A DNA stretch of 64,000 bases from Paludibacter sp. (lineage in GTDB: Bacteria; Bacteroidota; Bacteroidia; Bacteroidales; Paludibacteraceae): the NCBI GenBank assembly GCA_019163375.1, contig JAFLKK010000001.1:294638-358637 (forward strand), in the 5' to 3' direction. The position numbers were made by a program, and so were the translations under genes. The notes under the pieces were generated by a model. It saw only the letters and a program-made list of their open reading frames with translations. It had not been told where the DNA came from and searched no databases. The first letter of the stretch is position 1; each line of letters begins with the position of its first letter. Below, piece after piece: positions 34,526 through 56,822 of this stretch.

Positions 34526-34601
34526 CGGGATGTAGCTCAGCCCGGTTTAGAGTACTGGTCTGGGGGACCAGTGGTCGCAAGTTCGAATCTTGTCATCCCG
34601 A
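34526..34601 (+). tRNA. tRNA-Pro (anticodon GGG)
   Basis: Folded by hand: acceptor CGGGATG/CATCCCG, U8-A9, D stem GCTC/GAGT, anticodon stem CTGGT/ACCAG with loop CUGGGGG (GGG anticodon, G37), variable loop TGGTC, T arm GCAAG-TTCGAAT-CTTGT, discriminator A. No encoded CCA. Confidence 0.9.
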
Positions 34602-34649
34602 CTGCTATTTATCAAAGGTTTACACGAAAGTGTAAACCTTTTTTATTTG
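34558..34649 (+). repeat. attL: left direct repeat of the island (3' 44 nt of tRNA-Pro plus its terminator)
   Basis: 92 nt, identical to 56730-56822 except for one extra T in the T-run of the right copy. Confidence 0.9.
34614..34646 (+). terminator. rho-independent terminator of tRNA-Pro
   Basis: AAAGGTTTACAC-GAAA-GTGTAAACCTTT followed by a T-run. Duplicated at 56786-56817. Confidence 0.8.
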
Positions 34650-37626: not shown

Positions 37627-37653
37627 ATATCCTACTTGTAATTAGTAGGATAT
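37614..37653 (-). terminator. rho-independent terminator of the Panacea-associated operon
   Basis: Perfect 10-bp stem ATATCCTACT/AGTAGGATAT (37627-37653) abutting the stop codon. On the - strand it is followed by an 8-T run. Confidence 0.85.
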
Positions 37654-38141
37654 TAAATAAGATTATATTTCTTTTTTATTTTTGGCTCAATGGTTTCTGA
37701 ATTTTTTATGAGTTTTAATGCATCGACAAAGTCTGATTCAGATAGTAGGCCTTTATCTTTGCCATCTGATTTAAGTCTTGTTCTGTCGATTGGAAATAAT
37801 TGACTACAATCTAAAGTGCTTTTATACTTTAAAAAATGTGGATAATCTTTTTGCAGTAAAGGATATTGAAGATCGGAAAGTTCAGTCGTAAGTTCATTTG
37901 ATTCAGAATTAATAAGAAAAGTAGCATATAGATAGCGGTCGTTGTCATTAGAAATAATTACAACATATTTTCTTCTTGTATCGTATTTTCCCTTTAATAT
38001 TAAACCATCTTCTTCAGATAATATAATTTCAATTATCCTTCCTGGAACTAATTTTTCATCAGTGACTTTTTCTTTTTCTTTTTGCTCAATGACCTTGTCC
38101 ATTTTTAATTTTTCGAGCACTTTCTTCCAATCAGCAACCAC
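37653..38141 (-). CDS. hypothetical protein, candidate toxin partner of the Panacea-domain protein
   Basis: 162 aa. Overlaps the upstream DUF4065 gene by 11 nt. The segment PGRIIEIIL...RRKYVVIISND...YATFLINSE loosely resembles the PemK/MazF-type SH3-barrel pattern (weak). Confidence 0.6.
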   Translation of the reverse strand: MVADWKKVLEKLKMDKVIEQKEKEKVTDEKLVPGRIIEIILSEEDGLILKGKYDTRRKYVVIISNDNDRYLYATFLINSESNELTTELSDLQYPLLQKDYPHFLKYKSTLDCSQLFPIDRTRLKSDGKDKGLLSESDFVDALKLIKNSETIEPKIKKKYNLI

Positions 38142-39796: not shown

Positions 39797-40708
39797 TTAT
39801 GACAATGAAAATTTATTTTTCATTTTATTTAAAATTTCTGCAATGTGTTGCTCAAATTCTTGTGAATCAATTATTTCAATATCGTCTAATAATCCCATTA
39901 CAAAGCGACCTACACCATCATAAGAGCAAACATCGATATCGAGTAACCATTCATTATTTGGGAGTTTCTGGAGGTGTTTTGTGGCTAGTGGAAATTCTTC
40001 AATAAGGAGGTTTGCGGAACGTAAACCGAGTTTTAATTTAACGTGTTTCATTTCGCAGCTGTTCATCCTGAAAATATCAATACAACCGGACTGGTGATTT
40101 TCTTCGTGTTTCCAGTTTTCTGGTAATACTTCGACTGAACCAATGCGTGAAACCTTGAAAAGTTTATTCGTGTTTTCTTCGGGACAATAACACCATACCT
40201 GTACATAGTTGGTTGTGAATGCGTAGGCTTCTACATGACGGTCACGTATATCGTTGCCGTGTGCTGAAGAGTAATTGCGAAGGATTACTGGACGTTTGTT
40301 TTCTATTGCTTCAACCAACTGTTGTACATTCTTACCATTTTTGCCACTTACAATGGTTTCGGCAAGTATGTTGTAGTTATAAACGGTATAGAGTTTCTTT
40401 TTGAGGTTTTGTTTGAGTAGGTTGTTTTCGTCGATATTCTCAATGGCAGATTTGAGAATAAAAGCTTCTTCTTCGGTAAAGTGAATTAATTCACTTATGT
40501 CTTTAAAATAAGGCGAAGATTTATCGAGCTTTATGTAATTATCCACTTTTTTAATGACAAAACCTGCTTCCCTGAATGTATCGATATAGCGATAAACGGA
40601 ACGTTGTGAAATTGAGAGCTTAGCTGCAATTTCGTCAACGTTTAATGAATTGTTTGCTGTAAGCAATTTCATTAAACGTAAAAGGCGTTCAAGTTTTGGC
40701 TGATCCAT
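39797..40708 (-). CDS. WYL-domain transcriptional regulator (HTH + WYL)
   Basis: 303 aa. N-terminal HTH LSISQRSVYRYIDTFREAGFVI, and a central segment RHVEAYAFTTNYVQVWCYC consistent with a WYL domain. Confidence 0.75.
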   Translation of the reverse strand: MDQPKLERLLRLMKLLTANNSLNVDEIAAKLSISQRSVYRYIDTFREAGFVIKKVDNYIKLDKSSPYFKDISELIHFTEEEAFILKSAIENIDENNLLKQNLKKKLYTVYNYNILAETIVSGKNGKNVQQLVEAIENKRPVILRNYSSAHGNDIRDRHVEAYAFTTNYVQVWCYCPEENTNKLFKVSRIGSVEVLPENWKHEENHQSGCIDIFRMNSCEMKHVKLKLGLRSANLLIEEFPLATKHLQKLPNNEWLLDIDVCSYDGVGRFVMGLLDDIEIIDSQEFEQHIAEILNKMKNKFSLS

Positions 40709-41594: not shown

Positions 41595-42623
41595 TTATTC
41601 AAGATTTGGCTTATCGCCAGTCTTAATAATTGATATGTTATTTAATTTTACATTACCTTTTTGTGGGCTTGCATTATCGGCATACACTATCCATGTAATT
41701 TCGCATTCAACTGATTTATAATTAGCGTCCAATTTTATCTTTTCTGATCTGCCTCTTAAACCGGGTAATACGGGGTCGAAACGTGAAGGACCATATTCAG
41801 GAACGCTTTGTAAACCTGCATTTTTAAATCCTACAATATCTCTGAAAGTATTCTCTCCATAAAATTCAACCCATCCTTCATTCGGTTTGTTAAGATATTT
41901 TACAGCGTCTGAATCACAAATTATTTCAGGTAGTTGTACAAAATAATTGATATAATTGGCAAAAGTCTTGCCGTTATTCACCGGAAAAACTTTTAATGTA
42001 TAAATTGTAATATACTTTTTGGGAGGATCTACAGCTTCTTTACTCAACGAAAATGGCTTATATTGAGGAAAAATTGAGTTTTTACCTTCTTCATAAGTAT
42101 ATTCTTCAATCTCAAAATTCAGTCCAATTACCGGATATTTCAATCGATTCATTATATCTTTAATTTCATAGTCGAGCATGGGAACTACCTCGAAATTATA
42201 TCTCTTATAGTATTTGAATTCTTTTGTATTTTGGTGTGCTGTTGAACTTTGTGGAACCTCAACGACATAAACTACTTCATCAACTTGTTCTAAAGCAATA
42301 GGGTAAATCCGTAGACCATCAATTTTGGGGCTTATTCCGTTCGAAATCACCTGATCCAGCCATTCTTTTGAAATTACGGAACGTTTCACCGGTGTTATTT
42401 TCTCCGGCAAATGTTTATTTTCTCCAGAACCAAACTCTTTTATACCATAAATGATTACTCCACCAGCAGAATTTGCCATAGCACTTACGTCCTTAGCAAT
42501 TTCTTTTTTATAATGCTCAGTGTTCTGGAGGGCATCAGCCGACTTATATTCATGATGTATGCTTTCTTCAACACCATCTGAAATAAGGGTTTCCAGATCT
42601 TTTAAACTTTTTGGGACTATCAT
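41595..42623 (-). CDS. AlbA_2 (Schlafen-like, divergent AAA) domain protein with an uncharacterised C-terminal half
   Basis: 342 aa. EESIHHEYKSADAL...IAKDVSAMANSAGGVIIYGIKE fits the AlbA_2 pattern (E.K ... AfaN..GG.i.iG). 4-nt ATGA overlap with the upstream ORF6N gene. Confidence 0.65.
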   Translation of the reverse strand: MIVPKSLKDLETLISDGVEESIHHEYKSADALQNTEHYKKEIAKDVSAMANSAGGVIIYGIKEFGSGENKHLPEKITPVKRSVISKEWLDQVISNGISPKIDGLRIYPIALEQVDEVVYVVEVPQSSTAHQNTKEFKYYKRYNFEVVPMLDYEIKDIMNRLKYPVIGLNFEIEEYTYEEGKNSIFPQYKPFSLSKEAVDPPKKYITIYTLKVFPVNNGKTFANYINYFVQLPEIICDSDAVKYLNKPNEGWVEFYGENTFRDIVGFKNAGLQSVPEYGPSRFDPVLPGLRGRSEKIKLDANYKSVECEITWIVYADNASPQKGNVKLNNISIIKTGDKPNLE

Positions 42624-43180
42624 TCCTTTATTCCTTTCCTTAAAATGAGTTGTTCGGCATCCGGAGTTGAAACTGACATTAACTGCCGTAATGCCTCAAA
42701 AACTTCTTTGAATTGACTATCGTATTTAGTTTCCAGAACTGATAATTTTTGGGAGAGTTCGTGATTGGAGGAAACAATTTCGCGTATTTTTACAAATACC
42801 CTGACTACCTGTAGGCTTGCAGAAATGGCTTGGGCGGTATTCAACACACTTGCCAGCATTAATGCGCCATGTTCGGTAAAGACAAAGGGAAGTTTACGAC
42901 GACCACCTCTGTTTGATATCGCATTTTGCGACATCAAATCTTCTCCCACGTTTGATATCGCATTTTGCGACATCAAATCTGCCCATTCCTGTTTACTCAG
43001 TTGAAACATAAAATCGGCAGGAAAGCGAAGCTGATTGCGTTTTACCTGTTCATTGAGCCTACTGGTAGTTACCCCATAAATCTTACCCAAATCCGAATCG
43101 AACATTACTTTTTTTCCACGAATAGAATATACAAGATTTTGTATGTCTGATTCAGTTGCTGCAATTAATCCATTTTCCAT
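42620..43180 (-). CDS. ORF6N (KilA-N-related) DNA-binding domain protein
   Basis: 186 aa. IRGKKVMFDSDLGKIYGVTTSRLNEQVKRNQLRFPADFMFQLS...RGGRRKLPFVFTEHGALMLASVLN is the typical ORF6N pattern. Contains an in-frame 13-aa tandem duplication. Confidence 0.8.
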   Translation of the reverse strand: MENGLIAATESDIQNLVYSIRGKKVMFDSDLGKIYGVTTSRLNEQVKRNQLRFPADFMFQLSKQEWADLMSQNAISNVGEDLMSQNAISNRGGRRKLPFVFTEHGALMLASVLNTAQAISASLQVVRVFVKIREIVSSNHELSQKLSVLETKYDSQFKEVFEALRQLMSVSTPDAEQLILRKGIKE

Positions 43181-43375: not shown

Positions 43376-44593
43376 TTATCTTTCCAATATTTTCCCCAAG
43401 TGATATTCTGCCAATTGGTTTTCACCATCGTAGGTGGTATCTGTTATTTCTACCAAAGCAGTTTGTCTGTCTTTGCTGTAGCCGACATAAAATCGAATAA
43501 GGTCATATTTAGTGAGATAACGTTTTCCGTCCTCATTACTAACCCAAGTGTATTTTCCTAATTGTGCTTGCTTTAGTTGGCGATATTCAACGTCCTTTCT
43601 ACCGGCAAGTATTTCATCTAACCATACTTGTTTGATAATGAGTGTCAATACTTTTAATCCGGTGGTGTCAAATTTCTCTTTTGAGTTTTCTTTTTCCGGT
43701 AATTGTTCCAACGTAAATAACGAAGGATTGTATTTGTAATGAATAATGCTTCCATCAATTATTCTGTTTATTACGCTTTCAATAATACCCAAAGGTGCAA
43801 CATACCATTCACGAGCCGCAAAACGAGCACCCATAGCATCAACTAATTGCATTCTGAACTGAACTGCACTAAAAAATGAATGAATGAGTGCTTCAAATTT
43901 CTGGGTGTTCATATTAAAGGTTTTCCATGTTGCCACAATATCCACATTATCCATCAAGTAGGTAGTGTCATTTTTGGCGTTAGCAATTCGTGTTTCAACG
44001 GGAGTAGTGGAAAATCCTATTTTATATAAGTCGTTTTGACCGCTAATTTGCGGATTTGAAGAAAGTGAGCGTAATACATATATCCAACCGTCCTGAATAT
44101 CGTCAACAGTTACTTCAAACTTGGAATCAAAAACAGTGTCGTTAGTATCAATACTTTCAGTAACAAAATAGCCTTCTGAAGTTAATGATCTCCTTAATGT
44201 ATCGAGAAATATATCTGATTCAGTGCCGTTTTCATAAATACAACGTGTTCGGGCATCTTTCTTTTTCCTTTTAGTTTTTTCTACTAAGTCATCAACATAA
44301 TCCAAGAAAAGTACAACACCACCGATTACGTAATAATTGCCAGCTTTCAACGCATTTGCATTAAACTTCTTAATGCTTCTTTTCCCTGTTTTGAGTTCAA
44401 CATGCACCTTTTTAAAACCACCTTCGTAATCAGAAAAATTGGCACACTGAACGCGACGAGCCACATAGTCAGGCTTGTCTTTTTCCAACGTTTTTAAATT
44501 TTCAGGGACATTAAACAGGCTCAAATCCTCTTTTCCAATATCATTCAGTAAAGGGTCGTTGAAGAGTTCTTCTAATTCTTTATCAATTGGCAT
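43376..44593 (-). CDS. T5orf172 (GIY-YIG-like) domain protein with a C-terminal ASCH/PUA-like domain
   Basis: 405 aa. DLYKIGFSTTPVETRIANAKNDTTYL...FEALIHSFF fits T5orf172. The C-terminus LKVLTLIIKQVWLDEILAGRKDVEYRQ...IRFYVGY fits ASCH. Confidence 0.7.
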   Translation of the reverse strand: MPIDKELEELFNDPLLNDIGKEDLSLFNVPENLKTLEKDKPDYVARRVQCANFSDYEGGFKKVHVELKTGKRSIKKFNANALKAGNYYVIGGVVLFLDYVDDLVEKTKRKKKDARTRCIYENGTESDIFLDTLRRSLTSEGYFVTESIDTNDTVFDSKFEVTVDDIQDGWIYVLRSLSSNPQISGQNDLYKIGFSTTPVETRIANAKNDTTYLMDNVDIVATWKTFNMNTQKFEALIHSFFSAVQFRMQLVDAMGARFAAREWYVAPLGIIESVINRIIDGSIIHYKYNPSLFTLEQLPEKENSKEKFDTTGLKVLTLIIKQVWLDEILAGRKDVEYRQLKQAQLGKYTWVSNEDGKRYLTKYDLIRFYVGYSKDRQTALVEITDTTYDGENQLAEYHLGKILER

Positions 44594-44597
44594 GTTT

Positions 44598-44879
44598 TCA
44601 ATAGTATAAGAGGTTGGCTGTATCGTAGTCTTTTAGAAAAGCACTTCTTTCTTCGTCTGAACGAATACTTAATAAACGTCTGTAAAGTTTACGCTCACTG
44701 AAATCTGCACCTTCTTCTTTTGGTTCACATCCATTTGTCAATACCCAATCACATATTTCCAAAAACGATTCAACTAATCTATCATCGCTTGTTATCCTTG
44801 GAGCAAATGGTCTGACATCTGACAATATGGGATCATTGAAAAGTTCTATTAAATCTTCTGCCCAACTCATAGTTTTCAA
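44598..44879 (-). CDS. 93-aa protein sharing the ELFNDP(I/L)L N-terminal motif with the downstream T5orf172 protein
   Basis: 4-nt overlap with the helicase stop and a 4-nt gap to the next gene. LIELFNDPILSDV here compares with LEELFNDPLLNDI in the 405-aa protein. Confidence 0.6.
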   Translation of the reverse strand: MKTMSWAEDLIELFNDPILSDVRPFAPRITSDDRLVESFLEICDWVLTNGCEPKEEGADFSERKLYRRLLSIRSDEERSAFLKDYDTANLLYY

Positions 44880-46840
44880 TTTTGTTTAGATTGACTTAAC
44901 CCGCTCAAATATCTGCGTTTTTCATTACTTATAATGGTGTATGCCTGTTCTAATTTTCGTATTTGGGGTGAAGCATTATCCTTTGTTGGCAATACGTTAT
45001 TGTTGCTTGCAAGATATTCTTTTAATGGACCTTTGAATAGTATTTTTGCTTCATCGAGTGTCATATCGTATTTCTGCTCGGCAATAGTGTCCTGAATAAT
45101 TTTAAGAATAGGAGCTGAAACACTTTTGGACATAATCTCATAAGCCCGCTGGAACGGATTGATACTGTCTATAAGAGTAATATTTAAATCGTCGATATTG
45201 ATAAAACGATTTGTTAGCTTTAATAAACGGTTGCCTTCACTTTCGACAATATCGTTACCTTTTATAATGGTATCAAGGATAGCACGTTGCCGAACTTCTT
45301 CTACTTCTCCCTCAGATAAATCGGGATATTTTTCACGTATGATTTTTGGTATTAATACCTGATTGATAACTTCCGGTGGAGTGTTACCATCGAGCGCACG
45401 AACAATCATATTATTTTGAAGAATGGTAGCCTTTAGGTCGTCCAATTGTTCCGAAACAATCTGTGCGACTTTAGCCGAAGAAAGGGGTTTTAATCCTTCT
45501 ACAAATAATTCTCTTGCTCCGGTTGGTTTCTCAAATGGATCTTTTCGCGTTTTGAAATTCCAAGAGGGTGACATTACTTGTTCCATAAGTAATGAAGCCA
45601 CAATGGCTTTCAACATATCGTTAACTGATTTTGCCACATCATCCTGCTTAGCATCGGGCGCAGCTATCAGGTTGGTGAACTGTGCATGTTCTTTGCCCTC
45701 ACAATCGCGTGTACACCGACCGATAATCTGTACTACTTCAGTAAGAGAGCCGCGAACACCAATAGTAATACAACGCTCACACCATTGCCAATCGAAACCC
45801 TCCTTGGCTGTACCAAGTGCAATAATTACATCTACATGTTCTTTACGGCTCATACGTTGCAAATAGCCTTGCAATATGGTACGCTCTTTTGGATTATCTT
45901 CCACCAAATCAGCGAAGTATAGTATTTTGCCATCAGGGGTAACTACCGGTGTAATGCCCGTATCGTAGTTTTTATCACCCTTTACACCATAGAGGTTCAT
46001 AATATCTTCTACTTCGGTGTGTTTTCCTGTGCCTGAAGCAGCTCTCGAATTTACCGAAGGAATATGTATTAATGTTTTCTTAGTAGGATCTAAAAGTGGC
46101 TTTATGCCTGACAAATAATTGCCATTGGAATAAAAGTGATAGCCTAAACCCAATGTTTTAAGGTGTTTGTAACCATTGAGTTGCTGGTAATAATTATAGG
46201 TAACAGGATAAAACCGCCTTTCGTCTTCGGGACGCAGCACAAAATCGCCATCACCACGAAAATAGGAACCAGTCATAGCAATAATATGAGCCGAAGTTTC
46301 GGTCATAATTTCGCGAACGATATTACCTAAACCGCTATCTGCTGAAGCCGAAGCATGATGAAACTCATCAATGGCGAGCAAACAATCATTAAACACGTCG
46401 TTACTGAGTTCTTTCATGGCATTGCGTAACGTTGCGTGTGTACAAACAAGTTTGTTTGCGCTCCTCTGAATGAAAAACTCTTTGAAACGACCAATTTTAT
46501 CGCGCTCGTTTTCTGTGTCACAAAGATTGAAATACTGTGTGACTTCCCAGTCGTAAAGAAAACCTTGTTTTTTGAGATTCGTGTTTTGAAAAGAACGACC
46601 GATTGTTTTTTCGGGAACAACAACTATTACTTTGTTGATACTTTGATTGGCAAGTTTGTAAAGTGCAACATACATTAATGCTCTTGACTTGCCGGAAGCA
46701 GGAGGTGCTTTTACTAAAAGGTATTGTTCGTCGCGAGCTTTATATACTTTTGCTTGCATTTCGCGCATACCTAATTCGTCTGTGTTCGACGAATTACCAG
46801 TTTGCTCGTATTTAATTTCAACAATGTTGTTTGATTCCAT
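44876..46840 (-). CDS. SF2 DEAD/DEAH-box helicase (type III restriction Res-like ATPase)
   Basis: 654 aa. Walker A PPASGKSR, DEFH box, QIIGRCTR (motif VI), and a ~200-aa C-terminal extension. Confidence 0.85.
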   Translation of the reverse strand: MESNNIVEIKYEQTGNSSNTDELGMREMQAKVYKARDEQYLLVKAPPASGKSRALMYVALYKLANQSINKVIVVVPEKTIGRSFQNTNLKKQGFLYDWEVTQYFNLCDTENERDKIGRFKEFFIQRSANKLVCTHATLRNAMKELSNDVFNDCLLAIDEFHHASASADSGLGNIVREIMTETSAHIIAMTGSYFRGDGDFVLRPEDERRFYPVTYNYYQQLNGYKHLKTLGLGYHFYSNGNYLSGIKPLLDPTKKTLIHIPSVNSRAASGTGKHTEVEDIMNLYGVKGDKNYDTGITPVVTPDGKILYFADLVEDNPKERTILQGYLQRMSRKEHVDVIIALGTAKEGFDWQWCERCITIGVRGSLTEVVQIIGRCTRDCEGKEHAQFTNLIAAPDAKQDDVAKSVNDMLKAIVASLLMEQVMSPSWNFKTRKDPFEKPTGARELFVEGLKPLSSAKVAQIVSEQLDDLKATILQNNMIVRALDGNTPPEVINQVLIPKIIREKYPDLSEGEVEEVRQRAILDTIIKGNDIVESEGNRLLKLTNRFINIDDLNITLIDSINPFQRAYEIMSKSVSAPILKIIQDTIAEQKYDMTLDEAKILFKGPLKEYLASNNNVLPTKDNASPQIRKLEQAYTIISNEKRRYLSGLSQSKQN

Positions 46841-46845
46841 AATTT

Positions 46846-49500
46846 CTATTTTGTCATTTTCTCGTATAATTTAAACAAACACGCCAAGCGTTCTTCATCA
46901 TTGTTGAATGGAGCGGACTGATAGCAACCATCCACAGCCAAGTCTAAAGCATGGTGTGCTGCCCGTAAATCAGTCGGCATTTTGTTGGGGTCGTACATTT
47001 CGGCCAATGTTTTCTCAGTGTAATTTTCTCGTGTCAGCAGTACTTCTTCGGCTAAGGCTTCTATAATCTTTTTCTTGTTTAAAGAGATTTCGGGGAAGGG
47101 GAAAGAATTATAACATAAGCTTGTATATCGATAATCCATTTTTAGTTTGCCTCCAATTGTTTTAAGCCATACAATATTCATAGCGGAAGTCATTACACCA
47201 AATAACCATAATGGTGCATCAGAGATTGTATAACATGCATTTGTGACTACTGAATTACTATCAGAATAATCCATAGGTATATATATTCTATTTGAAGACG
47301 AAGTTGAAGGAATTATTAATGTTTTAGAATTGCATGCGTTAAATTCCCGAAACTGGTGAGGTCGTTGTGCTAACTTTCTTGCACCCTCGTCAGAACTTTG
47401 AATACGAATTTGAGCAGTTTTTTCGATTCGTTGTTTAATAAATGGAATTTGCTCTGCATTTTCGCGTTCTTCATCGGAAATCCATAAGCAATAACGAACT
47501 AGCCCATTTATAAAATCAGCAGAACTAAACAATTTTTTTATGTATTTTATTGAATCCGGGAATTGAGTTGTCAAATCGACTCTATCTGTTTCTGACAGCA
47601 AAAGATTGCCACCATCATAAGGCATACACCCTCTTATTATTAATGGAAATTTTGATAAACTATTTGTATGCTTTTTTACAATCAAATTATCACCCACGAT
47701 TAAATATGGATTTATATTGCTTACTTCCATTTTTGATACACCTTCGAAAATTGTACTCTTTTTGTGTTTTTCCTTATTTATTAAGCCAATTATAACACAA
47801 AAGACAGCTGCATTCTGCGTAGCATTATTACTCCACTTAAATGATAAATGAGCAAAGTCAATAAGTATATCTGAATTTAAAATAGGTGTCCATAATGGAT
47901 CTACCATTTCGCCTTGACATACTGAATTTGTACTTACAAAAGCACATTTAGCATTCGAGGATTTTAAATACTCAGACCCTTTAATGAACCAAATTCCAAT
48001 GTAATCAATTTTTTTATAGTTTGCATATTTTCCGATTGCAATGGTTCTATCTCTTTGTTGAAATTCATCAAGCTTTGCACTTCCCAAATACGGCGGATTC
48101 CCCATAACAAAAACCTCTTCTTCCGGAGTATGCGGACATACCTCGTTCCAATCTATGCGACAGGCATTGTCTTCACGAATGTTGTCGATATTTTTGAGTG
48201 GAAGCGCTTCAATCTTTACATCAGAAAATGCTTTTGTGAATAGCGCGTTCATTTGGTGTTCGGCAAGCCACAGTGAGAGCATGGCTATTTCGTGGGCAAA
48301 ACTATCTATCTCAACACCATAGAACTGCTTGATACTGATATTAGTAAAAGGAAAAGCGTGTGAACCGGTGAGTTCGGCAATGCGTTTCCATATACGGATT
48401 TCAAGTTCGCGAAGTTTTTTATATGTAATTATAAGGAAGTTACCGCTGCCACAAGCAGGGTCAAAGAATTTCATTTTGGAAATGCGAATCAACAAGGTGT
48501 TGAGTTGCTTTTCGCTGTTTTCAGCTTTTAAGTATGCCTCATTCAATTCGTTCAGAAAAAGTGGTTGTATAAGTTTTAGGATATTAGGCACGCTGGTGTA
48601 GTGCATCCCGAAATTTCCTCGAAGTTCAGGTGTCACTACCCCTTGAAACATTGAGCCAAAAATATCGGGGTTAATTTCGCCCCAATTAAGTGTACCACAC
48701 TCTAAAATGATTTTTCGAGCTTTGTATCCCAATTGTGGAATGGTAATACGTTGGCTAAACAATCCTCCGTTTACATAAGGAAACTGTTTAATCACGTTAG
48801 GCAAGTCGAGGCGAGCATTGTTATCCATCACATTGAAAATGGTATCTAATGCTTCCGCTAAATCACTACCATCGTCTTGCGTACATTGCTTAATGTAGTT
48901 TGAGAAAATGTCTTTTTCGAAAATTTTGGTATCCTCGGCAAAAAAGCAAAAAAGCAGGCGGGTCATAAATATATTCAAATCGTGCACATCCGATTCGGAC
49001 GAAATTTCGTTCTGTCTGCGGATTTCGTTGTGAAGCTTTGCCATTTTTACTGCTGCTTTTACATCTGCATCAGCTTCTTCTGCAATGAAAAAACGATCAT
49101 TAGCTTCGCCTGCCAACGGATAAAAGAATTGAAAATCGAGCCAGATTTTATCTACCTTGTTTTCATACGATTCTCTTTCTTTGGTATCGTAGGCAAGCAG
49201 TGTTTCGCCATCGCTAACAGCTATTATCCGTGGGTTTTGTTTAGCAATTTTATCATCTTTCTTTAATGCTTCTAATTCTTCAGTAAGTTGGATAGTTGTT
49301 ACTGGTTTGTAGGCAAATTGTTTTTTAACAAGTACGCCATCAAAAGTAGCCAAATTACCTTTGCCAGCTTTGTAACGCTTTATATAGGTGTCGCTTGTAC
49401 CAAATGCCTTCAATAGTTTGTAACCAATTTCTAAGGGGAGAGTTTCTGAACTTAACTTTTTGAGTTCTTTTTCAATGTCAGAGTATTTGATAGAAGCCAT
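46846..49500 (-). CDS. MmeI-family (type IIL-like) N6-adenine DNA methyltransferase
   Basis: 884 aa. MHYTSVPNILKLIQPLF, motif I FFDPACGSGNFLI, motif IV GNPPYLG, and an MmeI-type C-terminus MYDPNKMPTDLRAAHHALDLAVD...ERLACLFKLYEKM. Confidence 0.85.
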   Translation of the reverse strand: MASIKYSDIEKELKKLSSETLPLEIGYKLLKAFGTSDTYIKRYKAGKGNLATFDGVLVKKQFAYKPVTTIQLTEELEALKKDDKIAKQNPRIIAVSDGETLLAYDTKERESYENKVDKIWLDFQFFYPLAGEANDRFFIAEEADADVKAAVKMAKLHNEIRRQNEISSESDVHDLNIFMTRLLFCFFAEDTKIFEKDIFSNYIKQCTQDDGSDLAEALDTIFNVMDNNARLDLPNVIKQFPYVNGGLFSQRITIPQLGYKARKIILECGTLNWGEINPDIFGSMFQGVVTPELRGNFGMHYTSVPNILKLIQPLFLNELNEAYLKAENSEKQLNTLLIRISKMKFFDPACGSGNFLIITYKKLRELEIRIWKRIAELTGSHAFPFTNISIKQFYGVEIDSFAHEIAMLSLWLAEHQMNALFTKAFSDVKIEALPLKNIDNIREDNACRIDWNEVCPHTPEEEVFVMGNPPYLGSAKLDEFQQRDRTIAIGKYANYKKIDYIGIWFIKGSEYLKSSNAKCAFVSTNSVCQGEMVDPLWTPILNSDILIDFAHLSFKWSNNATQNAAVFCVIIGLINKEKHKKSTIFEGVSKMEVSNINPYLIVGDNLIVKKHTNSLSKFPLIIRGCMPYDGGNLLLSETDRVDLTTQFPDSIKYIKKLFSSADFINGLVRYCLWISDEERENAEQIPFIKQRIEKTAQIRIQSSDEGARKLAQRPHQFREFNACNSKTLIIPSTSSSNRIYIPMDYSDSNSVVTNACYTISDAPLWLFGVMTSAMNIVWLKTIGGKLKMDYRYTSLCYNSFPFPEISLNKKKIIEALAEEVLLTRENYTEKTLAEMYDPNKMPTDLRAAHHALDLAVDGCYQSAPFNNDEERLACLFKLYEKMTK

Positions 49501-49538: not shown

Positions 49539-49546
49539 CAAAAATA
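49539..49546 (-). promoter_or_regulatory. -7 promoter box (CAAAAATA) for the MTase-helicase operon
   Basis: Reverse complement of TATTTTTG, 39 nt upstream of the ATG at 49500. Confidence 0.45.
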
Positions 49547-53141: not shown

Positions 53142-55229
53142 TTATTTCAACAAATCATCGATTTCTTTGAATGTAAGTTGATATTTGTCCTTACTATATA
53201 TGTCAATGTTAAAAATTTTGCGTGCTTTTGAATAATCAATACTATGATCCATTGAAATCTTCTCAATAAAATAGCTCAATGCCCTTTTAATACCACCTTT
53301 AAATACCCATTTTATCTGTTTGGGATTGTTGAGAGGAATGCCGCCAAACCAATATAACCACGTATTTAAATCGCATTTCAATAATTTATTTAACTTTGCA
53401 TGAGCTGTTTTCAATTCATCAGTGGTTTTCCAGATTGTCTGAATTGTTGGCGTGTAACTTTCTGATTCATTATTTTCTGTTGTTTCGGTGATTTTTGCAT
53501 ACTCATCTTCAGCAAATTCTGAGAAGTGCAATAGATCATCAATGTTACATCTGAATTCAGCAAGAGGGATTTTTTCTAAGATTAATTTATATCTTTCGAA
53601 TAATGTGTAGTTTTCTGGAATATTGTGTTTTAGTCTATACATTTGAGGTGTGCTGCCATCCCAATCGGTAATAGTTTCAATTGAAAATTCATCCCAGTTG
53701 TTGATAAAATTAAAATAATATTCACATGTAGGAATAGGAAAACCGTAATACCCTGTTTCGCAGTCGTATGGCTTTGATTCTGTACCATCTTGATAGATTT
53801 TAGGTAAATGAAAAGTCATTGAATATGCATAATCTCGAATGTCTGCAATAAGATGTTTAAAGCTTGTCTTGTCAAAATCATCAGTGTTGTGTTTAATGAA
53901 CTGATACATGATATGTTCTGTGACCTTCTCTTCTCTGGTATTGTTATAGTAATCAGTTTCTTCCAGTCCTGTTTTTGGAGGATATAAAGCATCGCAAAAT
54001 TGGTGAGTTGTCAGTTCGAGATATTTTTTATTCGTAAAAATATCATTTTTTGTGTGTGGAACTCTGATAGTCTGTGATTGTTCAACAACATAGTTATCGG
54101 AGTTGAAGTTTTCTGATTCAGTTCGGAGTCTATACTGTTTCTCTGCTATTTCTGAAAAATATAACAAATCTGTGAGTCCAGCTCTAAATTTTGCTTCGGG
54201 AATGTGATTTTTTAGTGTTCTGATTTTTTCTCTTAATGTTTCCTGTTCGTCAACTTCAGACTCGATATTGAAAATTATTGATAGTGTAATTGGGTCTGTG
54301 TCGTAGTACTTGTATTTGTTTTCCTCGAAACTGTCATTTTCATTATCATCATTTTTTTTGATAATTTCGTTTTCGGGTCTCGGAATTAAAATCTGTATTT
54401 TATGAGCAAAATTTCGGATTTCGGACAATAAGTATTCGAAGTCGGGTTTGTTGTAATTCTTAGTGACAGATTTTATATACTTCTCCATTTGTGAAGGTGT
54501 AACATCATCATCATACGAACGTCGGCCGTGAAGTTTGTATAACATGCTGCAAAACTCAGCGGGTGTTGCATTGTAGTTTATTTCATCATTGATTTGTGCT
54601 TGTTTGGGTTGTTTTATAATAGGTTTTTCTTGTAGTACTGAATTGGTAGTATGATTTTCTTCAAGCTTTAATTGAATGATATTGTTGGGAGTTGTTTTGG
54701 AAGACTCTATGATACGAGCATATTCTTTCTCTGCTAAATCTGAAAATTTTAAAAGGCTATCTAAGTCGTGCAGGAATAACGCACTTGGAAGTGCTTTGTG
54801 GAATAATTCAACCTTTTGCCTTAATGTTTGTTTATCTGTGAATTTTAATTTACATTTAAAATCGAAAATGCAGATTAAACTGGATATACCATATTCGAAA
54901 ATTGAGATAATATCGTTAAAATTATGTTTTAGATAGTATTTGTGGCTTTCTCTTAATTCTTTGTTTTCAGTGCTTTGAAGACCAGTGGCTTGGTCAATTT
55001 CAATCTCAGGGCAAGCTGCTGGGTTTATAGTGTTAAATTCAATATTGATATGAAAATTCCTAATATCTTGGATAAGGTATTCGAAAGATTTTAAATCAAA
55101 ATTATTTGACTTTTCTTCGATAAACTGATACATGTCAACCAAGGGAATTTGAGTTCTGTCAGATGGAACTTCAAATAAGCTATAAACCTTTTCACAAAAT
55201 TGATAAATTGAATAGTCGCTAAACTTCAT
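53142..55229 (-). CDS. hypothetical protein built from three ~200-aa internal repeats plus a C-terminal domain
   Basis: 695 aa. Each repeat has FC..LY, then DF.K.SF(E/K).LI.DIR(N/D)(F/Y), then L.DLL.FSE.AE.EY. Confidence 0.65.
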   Translation of the reverse strand: MKFSDYSIYQFCEKVYSLFEVPSDRTQIPLVDMYQFIEEKSNNFDLKSFEYLIQDIRNFHINIEFNTINPAACPEIEIDQATGLQSTENKELRESHKYYLKHNFNDIISIFEYGISSLICIFDFKCKLKFTDKQTLRQKVELFHKALPSALFLHDLDSLLKFSDLAEKEYARIIESSKTTPNNIIQLKLEENHTTNSVLQEKPIIKQPKQAQINDEINYNATPAEFCSMLYKLHGRRSYDDDVTPSQMEKYIKSVTKNYNKPDFEYLLSEIRNFAHKIQILIPRPENEIIKKNDDNENDSFEENKYKYYDTDPITLSIIFNIESEVDEQETLREKIRTLKNHIPEAKFRAGLTDLLYFSEIAEKQYRLRTESENFNSDNYVVEQSQTIRVPHTKNDIFTNKKYLELTTHQFCDALYPPKTGLEETDYYNNTREEKVTEHIMYQFIKHNTDDFDKTSFKHLIADIRDYAYSMTFHLPKIYQDGTESKPYDCETGYYGFPIPTCEYYFNFINNWDEFSIETITDWDGSTPQMYRLKHNIPENYTLFERYKLILEKIPLAEFRCNIDDLLHFSEFAEDEYAKITETTENNESESYTPTIQTIWKTTDELKTAHAKLNKLLKCDLNTWLYWFGGIPLNNPKQIKWVFKGGIKRALSYFIEKISMDHSIDYSKARKIFNIDIYSKDKYQLTFKEIDDLLK

Positions 55230-55253: not shown

Positions 55254-56558
55254 CTACAATACCTTCACTGCTTCATCAATTACATTGCTGTTAAAGCTAT
55301 CGAGATAGGTGTTTGTTGTTTTAAGGTCTTTATGACCTAAGATTTGAGAAATGACTTCTCTTGGCACTTCATTGTTCTGTAAACTCATAGCCATAGTATG
55401 ACGACTAACATAAGAGGTCAGATTTATGTCACTGATTTCAAATTCATCTGCCAAGCCATCAAGATATGAATTTAGTTTTTTCAATCTTGTTTTAAGGTGA
55501 TTGTAAAGTTTTTCGCCAGTGAGATTTTCAATAGTTACAATTGGCAATAAGTAAGTATCAACAGGCTTCTTCATCTCGGAAAGTTCATTGATAAGCGTTT
55601 GAAGCTCTTCTGATAGCTTGATATTTATTGCCTTAGAACCTTGGCTGTTTTTTGTTTTGTGGCGTTTATATACAATATAAAGCCCATTCTCATACCTCTT
55701 AATATTGTCAGGTGTTAAGCGTGCCATATCCACGAAACTCATTCCATAGCAAAAGTATGAAAAAAGAAATAACTTTCGAGCATATTCATTAACTTTTTTA
55801 TCTGAACTTGTGGTTTTGATCTTAATGAGGTATTCAGAAGGTAAATATCGTTTCTCGGTCTCTTCTCCTAATTTGGCAACTTCAAAACCTCCTTTTCCAA
55901 ATGGATATGTCGTTGGACTTGCTTCTTTTGCCTCAATGGCCATATTTAATGCTGCACGCAATGATTTGAAATAAATTCTTCGTGTATTGCCGGAACAACC
56001 TTTCCGTTGAACTGTTCTTTTGTTGCCTTTAGTGCTTGTGTAGATAGTTTCTCGTGGCATCTGCATGAAAGTGTCTAATGCCCGGATATATTTAATGTCT
56101 ATTTCCGAAAATAGTTTCTTATCGAAATTTTTATCGAAAAGTTCGAGCATATCCAAAGTGCGTTGATAGCAAATTGCATTTCCTGTGTGATCTGTTTCTT
56201 TCAACGTTTTTATGAGATTCTCAAAAAAAGGTTTAACTTTGCCTTTCTTTGAGCGATTAAGGAATGCTTCTTCAAATTGGTTGAGTGTCCAGTCGATTTT
56301 GTTTTCGTCAAAATCTTTTATGGTCTTTTCCGCTTTCGTTTCCTGTTCGTTCAGATAAGCATTGTTTTTTTCGTGGAGTGGATTAATACGTTTATCTTTT
56401 TTGAAACGACCGAAGACTTCATCCCATTGGCTTGGTGTTGCAGTCATATTTAAGCCAATGAATTTCTTTTGACCGCTTTTAGAAATGCGTAAACAGATTG
56501 GATTTGTACCGTCTTTATTGGTATCAAAAGTGCGAAGGAAAATTTTAAACTTTGCCAT
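55254..56558 (-). CDS. tyrosine-type site-specific integrase (Bacteroidota arm-binding N-terminus)
   Basis: 434 aa. Catalytic-region motifs MSFVDMARL, SYVSRHTMAMS, ILGHKDLKTTNTYL. Sits 171 bp from attR. Confidence 0.9.
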   Translation of the reverse strand: MAKFKIFLRTFDTNKDGTNPICLRISKSGQKKFIGLNMTATPSQWDEVFGRFKKDKRINPLHEKNNAYLNEQETKAEKTIKDFDENKIDWTLNQFEEAFLNRSKKGKVKPFFENLIKTLKETDHTGNAICYQRTLDMLELFDKNFDKKLFSEIDIKYIRALDTFMQMPRETIYTSTKGNKRTVQRKGCSGNTRRIYFKSLRAALNMAIEAKEASPTTYPFGKGGFEVAKLGEETEKRYLPSEYLIKIKTTSSDKKVNEYARKLFLFSYFCYGMSFVDMARLTPDNIKRYENGLYIVYKRHKTKNSQGSKAINIKLSEELQTLINELSEMKKPVDTYLLPIVTIENLTGEKLYNHLKTRLKKLNSYLDGLADEFEISDINLTSYVSRHTMAMSLQNNEVPREVISQILGHKDLKTTNTYLDSFNSNVIDEAVKVL

Positions 56559-56729: not shown

Positions 56730-56822
56730 GTCTGGGGGACCAGTGGTCGCAAGTTCGAATCTTGTCATCCCGACTGCTATTTATCAAAGGTTTACACGAA
56801 AGTGTAAACCTTTTTTTATTTG
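56730..56822 (+). repeat. attR: right direct repeat (non-functional 3' tRNA-Pro fragment plus terminator)
   Basis: Matches 34558-34649. Lacks the 5' 32 nt of the tRNA. Confidence 0.9.

Follow-up and report, generated by a model that had tools for sequence, protein, structure and literature searches.

A Bacteroidales variant of the DnmA(YeeA)-YeeB-YeeC cluster with a split YeeC gene and an added ASCH-like domain on an integrative element of Paludibacter sp.

Identification of the locus

The window analyzed here is a stretch of 64,000 nucleotides from Paludibacter sp. (assembly GCA_019163375.1, contig JAFLKK010000001.1, positions 294,638 to 358,637), and at its positions 43376-49500 it carries an operon that encodes an MmeI-like methyltransferase (MT), a superfamily 2 (SF2) helicase (HEL), a small protein of about 90 residues, and a putative nuclease of the T5orf172/GIY-YIG type. 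As judged from homology and gene order, this locus is a Bacteroidales variant of the known DnmA(YeeA)-YeeB-YeeC cluster and not a new kind of system. What is new here is that the YeeC gene is split and an ASCH domain is added in the Bacteroidales variant, while the family itself has already been described. We consider it fairly probable that the module is a multi-subunit, ATP-dependent defense system of the type I/ISP-like restriction-modification (R-M) kind, carried as cargo by an element integrated at a tRNA-Pro gene. The features of the operon are as follows.

46846-49500, minus strand: DnmA/YeeA-like MmeI homologue (MT), 884 aa, full-length open reading frame (ORF)
49006-49500, minus strand: N-terminal MmeI_N-like domain of MT, aa 1-165, matched by Pfam MmeI_N
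47086-47694, minus strand: target-recognition domain (TRD) of MT, aa 603-805, the segment of the system that varies most
44876-46840, minus strand: YeeB-like SF2 helicase (HEL), 654 aa, full-length ORF
44598-44879 from TTG (93 aa) or 44598-44870 from ATG (90 aa), minus strand: small ORF, detached N-terminal module of YeeC
43376-44593, minus strand: YeeC-like putative nuclease subunit, 405 aa, full-length ORF
44537-44593, minus strand: YeeC N-terminal motif, with its repeat copy at the small-ORF N-terminus, 44814-44870
43379-43681, minus strand: predicted ASCH (PUA-like) C-terminal domain of the YeeC-like protein, from Foldseek and GxKxxExR
49539-49546, minus strand: TATTTTTG, promoter-like box of the Bacteroidota -7 type in the 86-nt intergenic region 5' of the operon

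When we compared the encoded proteins with plasmid-borne representatives, using the homologues of a Bacillus sp. BD59S plasmid as a proxy for B. subtilis YeeA/B/C, MT matched the Bacillus, Vibrio, and Klebsiella proteins with E values of 1e-214 to 1e-236. The YeeC-like protein matched its counterparts from Bacillus (5e-59), Acinetobacter (1e-65), Vibrio (5e-35), and Klebsiella (5e-42), and HEL matched the YeeB-like helicase of the Bacillus plasmid by phmmer (E = 6e-220), the helicase comparison being made with the Bacillus representative only. An earlier note on this DNA, written from the letters alone, had pointed to a likeness to B. subtilis yeeA-yeeB-yeeC, and the same trio, order, and homology bear this out. 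The note had also taken that cluster to be uncharacterized, which is out of date now that the N6-methyladenine (m6A) activity of DnmA and tests in B. subtilis and Vibrio have been published, and the helicase-linked, nuclease-less MmeI arrangement had already been set out by Morgan et al. in 2009 (PMC2731913).

Morgan et al. described a 'second set' of MmeI homologues that differ from MmeI in the first ~100 residues, have no PD-ExK, and 'invariably' have a YeeB-like helicase and a GIY-YIG protein resembling YeeC as neighbors, and they proposed a type I-like system with single-strand modification (PMC2731913). YeeA is now known as DnmA, an m6A methyltransferase that modifies GACGAG on one strand, and deletion of dnmA in B. 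subtilis left growth and plasmid transformation unchanged (PMC7261158). Fernandez et al. (2023) reported that the synteny of dnmA, helicase, and T5orf172 genes is conserved across bacteria, called the B. subtilis locus a relic, and noted an 'uncharacterized protein family' in the neighborhood (PMC9973331). For Vibrio crassostreae, resistance against one group of phages was traced to yeeAB (bioRxiv 10.1101/2021.05.05.442762). In the literature to 2026, we found no named system or mechanism for the YeeABC family.

Layout of the operon

The earlier note had described four minus-strand ORFs separated by a 5-nt gap, a 4-nt overlap, and a 4-nt gap. The ORFs and the two gaps, between MT and HEL (5 nt) and between the small ORF and YeeC (4 nt), were found as described, but the 4-nt overlap between HEL and the small ORF exists only when the small ORF starts at TTG, and a start at ATG 44870 leaves a 5-nt gap instead. 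The small protein has 26 homologue clusters (88-93 aa), of which 25 start at the residue equivalent to M4 (MSW/MNW...), while the remaining one, P0021 (93 aa), starts with MKTMSW like the window ORF. Since nearly all clusters start at the M4 equivalent, ATG 44870 is the likely start of the small ORF, giving a protein of 90 aa.

The TAnnTTTG box that the note had placed in front of the operon is present as TATTTTTG, 38 nt 5' of the MT ATG. Because TAnnTTTG is little enriched in this AT-rich window (108 occurrences against 87 +/- 10 expected), the box alone is poor evidence of a promoter. A scan for sigma-70 promoters stayed at chance level (23 found, 22.5 expected). Terminator-like hairpins numbered 10, compared with 4.5 +/- 1.9 in shuffled sequences, and were weak stems within coding sequence.

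The methyltransferase subunit

The Pfam search matched MmeI_N, MmeI_hel, MmeI_Mtase, MmeI_TRD, and MmeI_C in MT (53-324 bits), with 324 bits for MmeI_Mtase, 231 for MmeI_TRD, and 90 for MmeI_C. The protein thus consists of an MmeI_N-like domain, a helical spacer, a gamma-class N6-adenine methyltransferase (MTase) domain, the TRD, and a C-terminal domain, and the motifs FFDPACGSGNFLI (aa 345-357), GNPPYLG (aa 467-473), and MPTDLRAAHHALDLAVD (aa 841-857) were located in it. MTase_I gave a weak match (2e-5) on the catalytic motif region.

When MT was aligned by phmmer with the MmeI structure 5HR4 (E = 3e-170), only query residues 87-883 were placed, on MmeI 105-903, and the region of the catalytic residues D70, E80, and K82 of MmeI (PMC2731913) falls outside the alignable part. 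The MmeI_N profile matches the N-terminal domain over profile positions 28-181 with 58 bits. No conserved D...ExK (D-X9-E-X-K) was found when it was sought in aa 1-100 across 55 MT homologues; the residues conserved in this domain among them are G55..K59 and S96-D97-G98, with no ExK. Because D70/E80/K82 are not present, MT is predicted to be unable to cut alone. PADLOC assigned REase_MTase_IIG to MT with 948 bits, and this type IIG label, given to a protein without a catalytic PD-ExK, would reflect overall homology only. The earlier reading of MT as a methyltransferase agrees with its gamma-MTase motifs, but by its sequence it is better labeled a nuclease-dead full-length MmeI homologue. Following Morgan et al. 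2009, we suggest that its N-terminal domain (aa 1-165) may act as a docking platform for the helicase and the nuclease.

The TRD has a mean identity of 40% (minimum 10%) to 53 homologues, compared with 55-66% in the other MT domains. This divergence fits a diversification of specificity.

The helicase and the YeeC-like protein

HEL contains PPASGKSR (Walker A GKS, aa 46-53), DEFH (158-161), TGS (190-192), and QIIGRCTR (371-378), and Pfam matched DEAD (3.8e-9), ResIII (3.3e-8), and, weakly, Helicase_C. With a mean identity of 65%, its gene is the best conserved of the four. Sequence searches of the Protein Data Bank (PDB) gave no match for HEL or for the YeeC-like protein.

The YeeC-like protein is composed of an N-terminal acidic motif, a T5orf172/GIY-YIG-like domain (aa 169-278), and an ASCH-like domain (aa about 305-405). 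Its AlphaFold model, with a predicted local distance difference test score (pLDDT) of 79.8, shows a beta-rich N-domain (about aa 44-160), a T5orf172/GIY-YIG-like core, and a C-terminal barrel. T5orf172 was matched by Pfam at 42.4 bits (cut-off 20) and MUG113 at 42 bits, so that each of the MmeI-family, SF2 helicase, and T5orf172 assignments of the earlier note has a Pfam match. The motifs 'GWIYVL' and 'YKIG' are present in the GIY-YIG core and KIGFSTTPVETRI lies at aa 191-203; with this, all motifs quoted in the note for MT, the helicase, and the last gene were located. In 24 homologues, G169, I171, Y172, K191, I192, G193, R202, H238, E262, and N289 are invariant, and of the GIY/YIG tyrosines, Y172 is thus invariant and Y190 is conserved in at least 90%. 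From these features, the protein is a putative nuclease of the GIY-YIG/T5orf172 type.

The ASCH-like domain

An ASCH-like C-terminus had been proposed from the letters, and the structural comparison supports it where the profile search does not. In Foldseek, the best matches of the C-terminal barrel were ASCH domains, led by 3iuw (probability 1.0, template modeling (TM) score 0.69 on the target) and followed by 1wk2 (probability 1.0), 5gus (0.98), and 2z0t, with a model pLDDT of about 76-91 over aa 311-405. Pfam ASCH PF04266 gave no match on the full-length protein at E <= 0.01, and on the isolated C-terminal 99 aa it reached 18.5 bits (E = 0.0033), below the cut-off of 21.2. The motif GxKxxExR, which is the signature and cavity motif of ASCH (PMC6803910), is present as G331-R-K333-D-V-E336-Y-R338, and in the 24 homologues K333 and E336 are invariant while G331 and R338 are conserved in at least 90%. 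According to the model, then, the C-terminal ASCH-like domain is real at the fold level.

The ASCH part was not covered in any of 228 plasmid-borne homologues from other phyla. Together with the census described below, the sequences mark the domain as a minority, mainly Bacteroidales, lineage-specific accretion.

The small ORF as a detached module of YeeC

The small ORF has no family match in Pfam, PADLOC, NCBIfam, or PHROGs. When a hidden Markov model (HMM) of the small ORF was compared with YeeC proteins, it matched N-terminal residues 9-92 of the Bacillus plasmid YeeC (E = 5e-18) and the YeeC N-termini of Vibrio alfacsensis (E = 2e-16) and Klebsiella (E = 7e-10). On the Acinetobacter plasmid, it matched a separate 95-aa ORF between the helicase and YeeC genes (E = 6e-18). 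Longer YeeC homologues (P0072-74 and P0078), which have ~100 additional residues, align with the small protein over their extra N-terminus, and the module is fused to YeeC in the related loci L024 and L081 as well. By these comparisons, the small ORF encodes the helical module with which canonical YeeC begins, about 90 aa long and here a gene of its own. A novel fourth component, as which the earlier note had presented the 93-aa protein, was rejected on the HMM matches and alignments, and because the small ORF is a detached YeeC module, the locus is not truly four-component.

We then examined the architectures of YeeC proteins with a 506-position whole-YeeC profile against 1.84 billion cluster representatives (50% identity), a census of YeeC proteins and not a count of stand-alone small proteins. 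The search matched 1984 clusters. Among the best 150 of these, the module is fused without ASCH in 117, module and ASCH are both missing in 11 (split, Acinetobacter-like, or truncated), 11 are of the window type without the module and with ASCH, 5 have a fused module together with ASCH, and 6 are partial matches.

The AlphaFold model of the small protein shows four helices (pLDDT 85), and Foldseek found no fold match for it in the PDB (best E = 2.7). In the helicases of Acinetobacter and Bacillus, the small-ORF HMM matched the C-termini weakly (E about 1e-5 to 1e-4), and it did not match the window HEL. A kinship of the module to 'helicase-associated' helical repeats was considered and is unsupported by the Foldseek and HMM results.

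The N-terminus of the small ORF recurs in the 405-aa protein. The YeeC N-terminal motif M-P-I-D-K-E-L-E-E-L-F-N-D-P-L-L-N-D-I is identical to it at 10 of 19 positions (BLASTP, E = 5e-4), the small-ORF HMM matches aa 1-19 of the YeeC-like protein (E = 4e-5), and the two copies read ELFNDPILSDV in the small protein and ELFNDPLLNDI in the 405-aa protein. An equivalent motif, DDIFxDDDLGLLD, occurs twice in the fused YeeC of Bacillus, Vibrio, and Klebsiella. We suggest that this duplicated acidic-hydrophobic motif may be a docking peptide. The fused-or-split state of the module argues that it could work as an independent adaptor.

Conservation and selection

A scan of species-representative genomes found relatives in at least 583 genomes, and the best 80 matches were taken as the loci to be studied. 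Nearly all of these are labeled Bacteroidales, with a few contigs of metagenome-assembled genomes (MAGs) that have another taxon label or none, and the closest among the matches listed are Paludibacter MAGs with 83-85% identity. HEL was found in 68 of 68 loci with >2.4 kb of upstream sequence, the small module in 76 of 76 with >300 nt (fused in 2), and MT in 38 of 40 with >8 kb. The order MT-HEL-small ORF-YeeC holds in every locus with all four detected, and synteny is kept down to 43% YeeC identity. The MT/helicase/YeeC trio also lies on Bacillus, Vibrio, and Klebsiella plasmids, and the family was found in 228 plasmid records, of which 148 are conjugative or mobilizable.

The ratios of nonsynonymous to synonymous substitution rates (dN/dS) against three relatives were 0.16-0.19 for MT, 0.03-0.05 for HEL, 0.08-0.15 for the small ORF, and 0.05-0.10 for YeeC, with dS near saturation. 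All four genes are under purifying selection.

The junction between MT and HEL, which is compact in the window (5-nt gap), carries inserts of 0.34-2.9 kb in 46 of 66 related loci (L004-L085). Their varied cargo includes Bro-N/RhuM-like genes, toxin-antitoxin pairs resembling Phd/YoeB, and a 409-aa protein that begins with an ASCH domain, and the junction has the look of a hotspot for insertions inside the operon.

Two other loci have unusual arrangements. In Bacteroides ihuae (L024, 2800-7748), SIR2-like, HerA-like, and SLFN_AlbA_2/HATPase_c_4 genes lie directly 5' of the helicase, YeeC is of the fused type (508 aa), and no MmeI-like gene was found within 7.7 kb. On the OXA-23 plasmid p2014BJAB1 of Acinetobacter baumannii (L086, 4009-7813), ISAba1 is located directly 5' of a truncated helicase (residues ~180-607), and what remains is this fragment, the 95-aa ORF of the module, and a YeeC of 304 aa, with no MmeI-like methyltransferase annotated in the 14.8 kb examined.

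The integrative element and its other genes

The operon lies within an integrative element bounded by exact 87-bp direct repeats at 34558-34644 and 56730-56816. The repeat consists of the 3' half of tRNA-Pro and a hairpin, and tRNA-Pro(ggg) is located at 34526-34602. Besides the genes given below, the element contains two HTH_17 genes, a DUF3987 gene, and a Zn-ribbon/DUF6371 gene.

34558-56816: integrative element, about 22.2 kb, with the module as cargo
55254-56558, minus strand: tyrosine integrase, an element gene
53142-55229, minus strand: 695-aa ORF adjoining the integrase, no Pfam or PADLOC match
42620-43180, minus strand: ORF6N-domain gene, PADLOC candidate PDC-S05 (6e-50)
41595-42623, minus strand: Schlafen/AlbA_2-domain gene, overlapping the ORF6N gene by 4 nt
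39797-40708, minus strand: HTH-WYL-WCX transcription regulator, conserved with the island in L001 and L002
38131-38703, minus strand: SocA/Panacea-domain antitoxin-like gene, overlapping the 162-aa ORF
37653-38141, minus strand: 162-aa ORF without family match, partner of the Panacea gene

The Panacea gene and the 162-aa ORF are probably a toxin-antitoxin pair, and WYL-type regulators often stand beside defense systems. The ORF6N and Schlafen pair is found after the quartet in L001 and L002, though not in L004, and we therefore regard it as a separate candidate defense pair. In L004, the quartet stands between other neighbors, a GmrSD gene on its upstream side and an HNH gene on its downstream side, which argues that the quartet moves as a unit.

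The Pfam search of 17 neighboring ORFs (32.8-61.3 kb) found no methyltransferase domain, and the BREX/DISARM partner genes PglZ, BrxC, BrxL, and DrmA/B/C were not found in the island. PADLOC, a check proposed in the earlier note, recognized the MTase (as type IIG) and PDC-S05 on the island, with no defined system for the quartet. No named system was assigned by PADLOC, NCBIfam, or PHROGs to the helicase, to the small ORF, or to YeeC, and weak matches to PDC-S57, PbeA, and Cas3 were uninformative.

Proposed function

In the model that we infer for complex formation, translocation, cleavage, and defense of the host, the MmeI-like subunit would recognize a short asymmetric site via its variable TRD and methylate one adenine on one strand, marking self DNA, and its nuclease-dead N-domain would bring in the SF2 helicase/translocase together with the GIY-YIG/T5orf172 nuclease. 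Where a site is unmodified, translocation driven by ATP would link recognition to cleavage by the GIY-YIG subunit, and because only one strand would be modified, communication between two sites is probably needed, as in type ISP and type III. The nuclease would be tethered via the N-terminal helical module, here the separate 90-aa protein, and the duplicated acidic-hydrophobic motif, and the lineage-specific ASCH domain would add nucleic-acid or base binding at the cleavage subunit. The R-M-like reading of the earlier note, ATP-dependent and with cutting left to the GIY-YIG protein, thus stays plausible, and the base-reading role that it raised for ASCH is compatible with the data. The model is supported by the intact domains and motifs of all four genes, the loss of PD-ExK from an otherwise full-length MmeI homologue, the conserved GIY-YIG residues, the synteny in Bacteroidales and on plasmids, the low dN/dS values, the divergent TRD, and the place of the module as mobile-element cargo beside the PDC-S05/ORF6N gene, the Schlafen-like gene, the WYL regulator, and the Panacea-type pair. 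The published type I-like model, the one-strand m6A made by DnmA, and the phage resistance seen with yeeAB in Vibrio also speak for it.

Here, we need to consider the points that weigh against ATP-dependent restriction. The B. subtilis cluster restricted neither plasmid transformation nor the phages Nf, phi29, and SBS-PhiJ (PMC9973331), and YeeA alone was without nuclease activity (PMC2731913). Biochemical cleavage has been demonstrated for no member of the family, and PADLOC recognizes the MTase and no defined system. The translocase and nuclease roles are read from motifs, HEL and YeeC being without a solved sequence relative. Finally, a minority of related loci are decayed (L052, L066, L049, L056, and L077); the copy in Segatella copri HDE04 has a truncated helicase and no MTase, and the remaining ones have MT or HEL genes in fragments or split, so the family turns over. 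Our confidence in the restriction model is kept moderate because the B. subtilis data are negative.

One alternative, improbable in our view but to be taken seriously, is that the module defends the cell without restricting unmethylated sites. The MTase would only mark or regulate, following a BREX/DISARM-like or type IV-like logic, and the helicase, the GIY-YIG protein, and the ASCH domain would sense phage replication intermediates, RNA-DNA hybrids, or modified phage bases. The DnmA motif is not avoided in phage genomes, a point that also counts against the restriction model and from which the authors concluded that the mechanism differs from canonical R-M, and DnmA localization responds to RNA-DNA hybrids (PMC9973331). 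ASCH/PUA-like domains bind nucleotides or RNA (PMC6803910), and MT has partial PADLOC similarity to DrmMI and PglX. However, no BREX or DISARM partner gene accompanies it in the island, the hypervariability of the TRD fits sequence-specific discrimination of self and non-self, and since most family members, the plasmid homologue of Vibrio alfacsensis among them, have no ASCH, this domain cannot be the core sensing device.

A speculative extension, to which we give a small chance, is that the Bacteroidales ASCH pocket on the cleavage subunit reads a base, either the m6A of the system itself or a hypermodified phage base, with the 90-aa module and the peptide as exchangeable adaptors acting in trans. 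If so, the ASCH-reading nuclease would itself check the modification status at or near the cut site, and the system would be a hybrid of modification-blocked (type I/ISP-like) and modification-reading (type IV-like) restriction, put together by a new assembly principle.

The decayed copies also bear on a third explanation, in which the MTase functions as an orphan enzyme in epigenetics or regulation and the genes after it are only an inactive relic, the view put forward for B. subtilis. The B. subtilis data (PMC7261158, PMC9973331) and the listing of DnmA as an orphan MTase in a 2025 EcoSal review agree with it. We think it quite unlikely for the window, whose four ORFs all have their full length and keep their catalytic motifs intact: the dN/dS values of the helicase, the small ORF, and YeeC are 0.03-0.15, the helicase is the best conserved gene, synteny survives at low YeeC identity, and the module sits on a mobile element and not in the core genome.

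It is likewise quite unlikely that the module mainly serves its element, through addiction or stabilization (post-segregational killing when methylation lapses) or exclusion of competing elements; it does lie within the 22-kb element beside the replication and integration genes, most of the plasmid records are conjugative or mobilizable, and toxin-antitoxin pairs are often inserted within the operon in related loci, but the B. subtilis dnmA deletion caused no growth defect (PMC7261158), and since addiction and defense by R-M are not exclusive, this would be an additional role rather than an alternative mechanism.

Whichever of these holds, the family is widely distributed, with matches in at least 583 species genomes, on 228 plasmids, and in 1984 clusters, and has been recognized since 2009, with a mechanism demonstrated for no member and with two experimental systems that disagree, defense being seen in Vibrio and none in B. 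subtilis. The comparisons made here clarify its architecture, in that the 'extra' small gene seen in neighborhood surveys is the YeeC N-terminal module, and they define a Bacteroidales sub-family with ASCH among bacteria of the gut and rumen, in which defense systems shape the flow of phages and plasmids. The window copy, which is intact, compact, and carried by a mobile element, would be a better candidate for reconstitution than the apparently inactive B. subtilis copy.

Comparison with known systems

Membership in DISARM, BREX, MADS, and type I was considered and rejected, the partner genes being missing. With the ASCH proteins of known structure (E. faecalis 3IUW, TTHA0113 1WK2, ZmASCH 5GUS, and human EOLA1), the C-terminal domain of the YeeC-like protein shares the predicted beta-barrel and GxKxxExR. 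It differs from them in being fused to a GIY-YIG-type protein in an R-M-like operon, and the sequence similarity is below threshold.

Compared with the MmeI enzymes of type IIL/IIG, MT is homologous from residue ~87 to the C-terminus and shares the helical spacer, FxDPxCGxGxF, NPPY, the TRD, and the C-domain, and by analogy it is likely to methylate adenine on one strand. In contrast to MmeI, MT is without D70/E80/K82 and travels with a helicase and a separate nuclease.

With type ISP (LlaGI and LlaBIII) and type I systems, the window module has in common the combination of a gamma-class adenine MTase, a TRD, an SF2 ATPase, and a nuclease. In type ISP, an asymmetric site with one-strand modification needs ATP-driven communication between sites, and by analogy the window system may need the same. 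It differs from type ISP in consisting of four separate ORFs and in its nuclease candidate, which is T5orf172/GIY-YIG and not Mrr/PD-ExK, and from type I in that neither HsdS nor HsdR models matched in PADLOC or NCBIfam, where none of the type I or ISP component models did.

Finally, in comparison with DnmA-YeeB-YeeC, the window YeeC is split into ORFs of 90 and 405 aa, and the 405-aa part has an ASCH-like domain that is absent in the Bacillus, Vibrio, Klebsiella, and Acinetobacter forms. Both have a PD-ExK-less MmeI-like MTase followed by an SF2 helicase and then a T5orf172/GIY-YIG gene in the same order and orientation, with no second MTase, and both lie in a horizontally acquired region.

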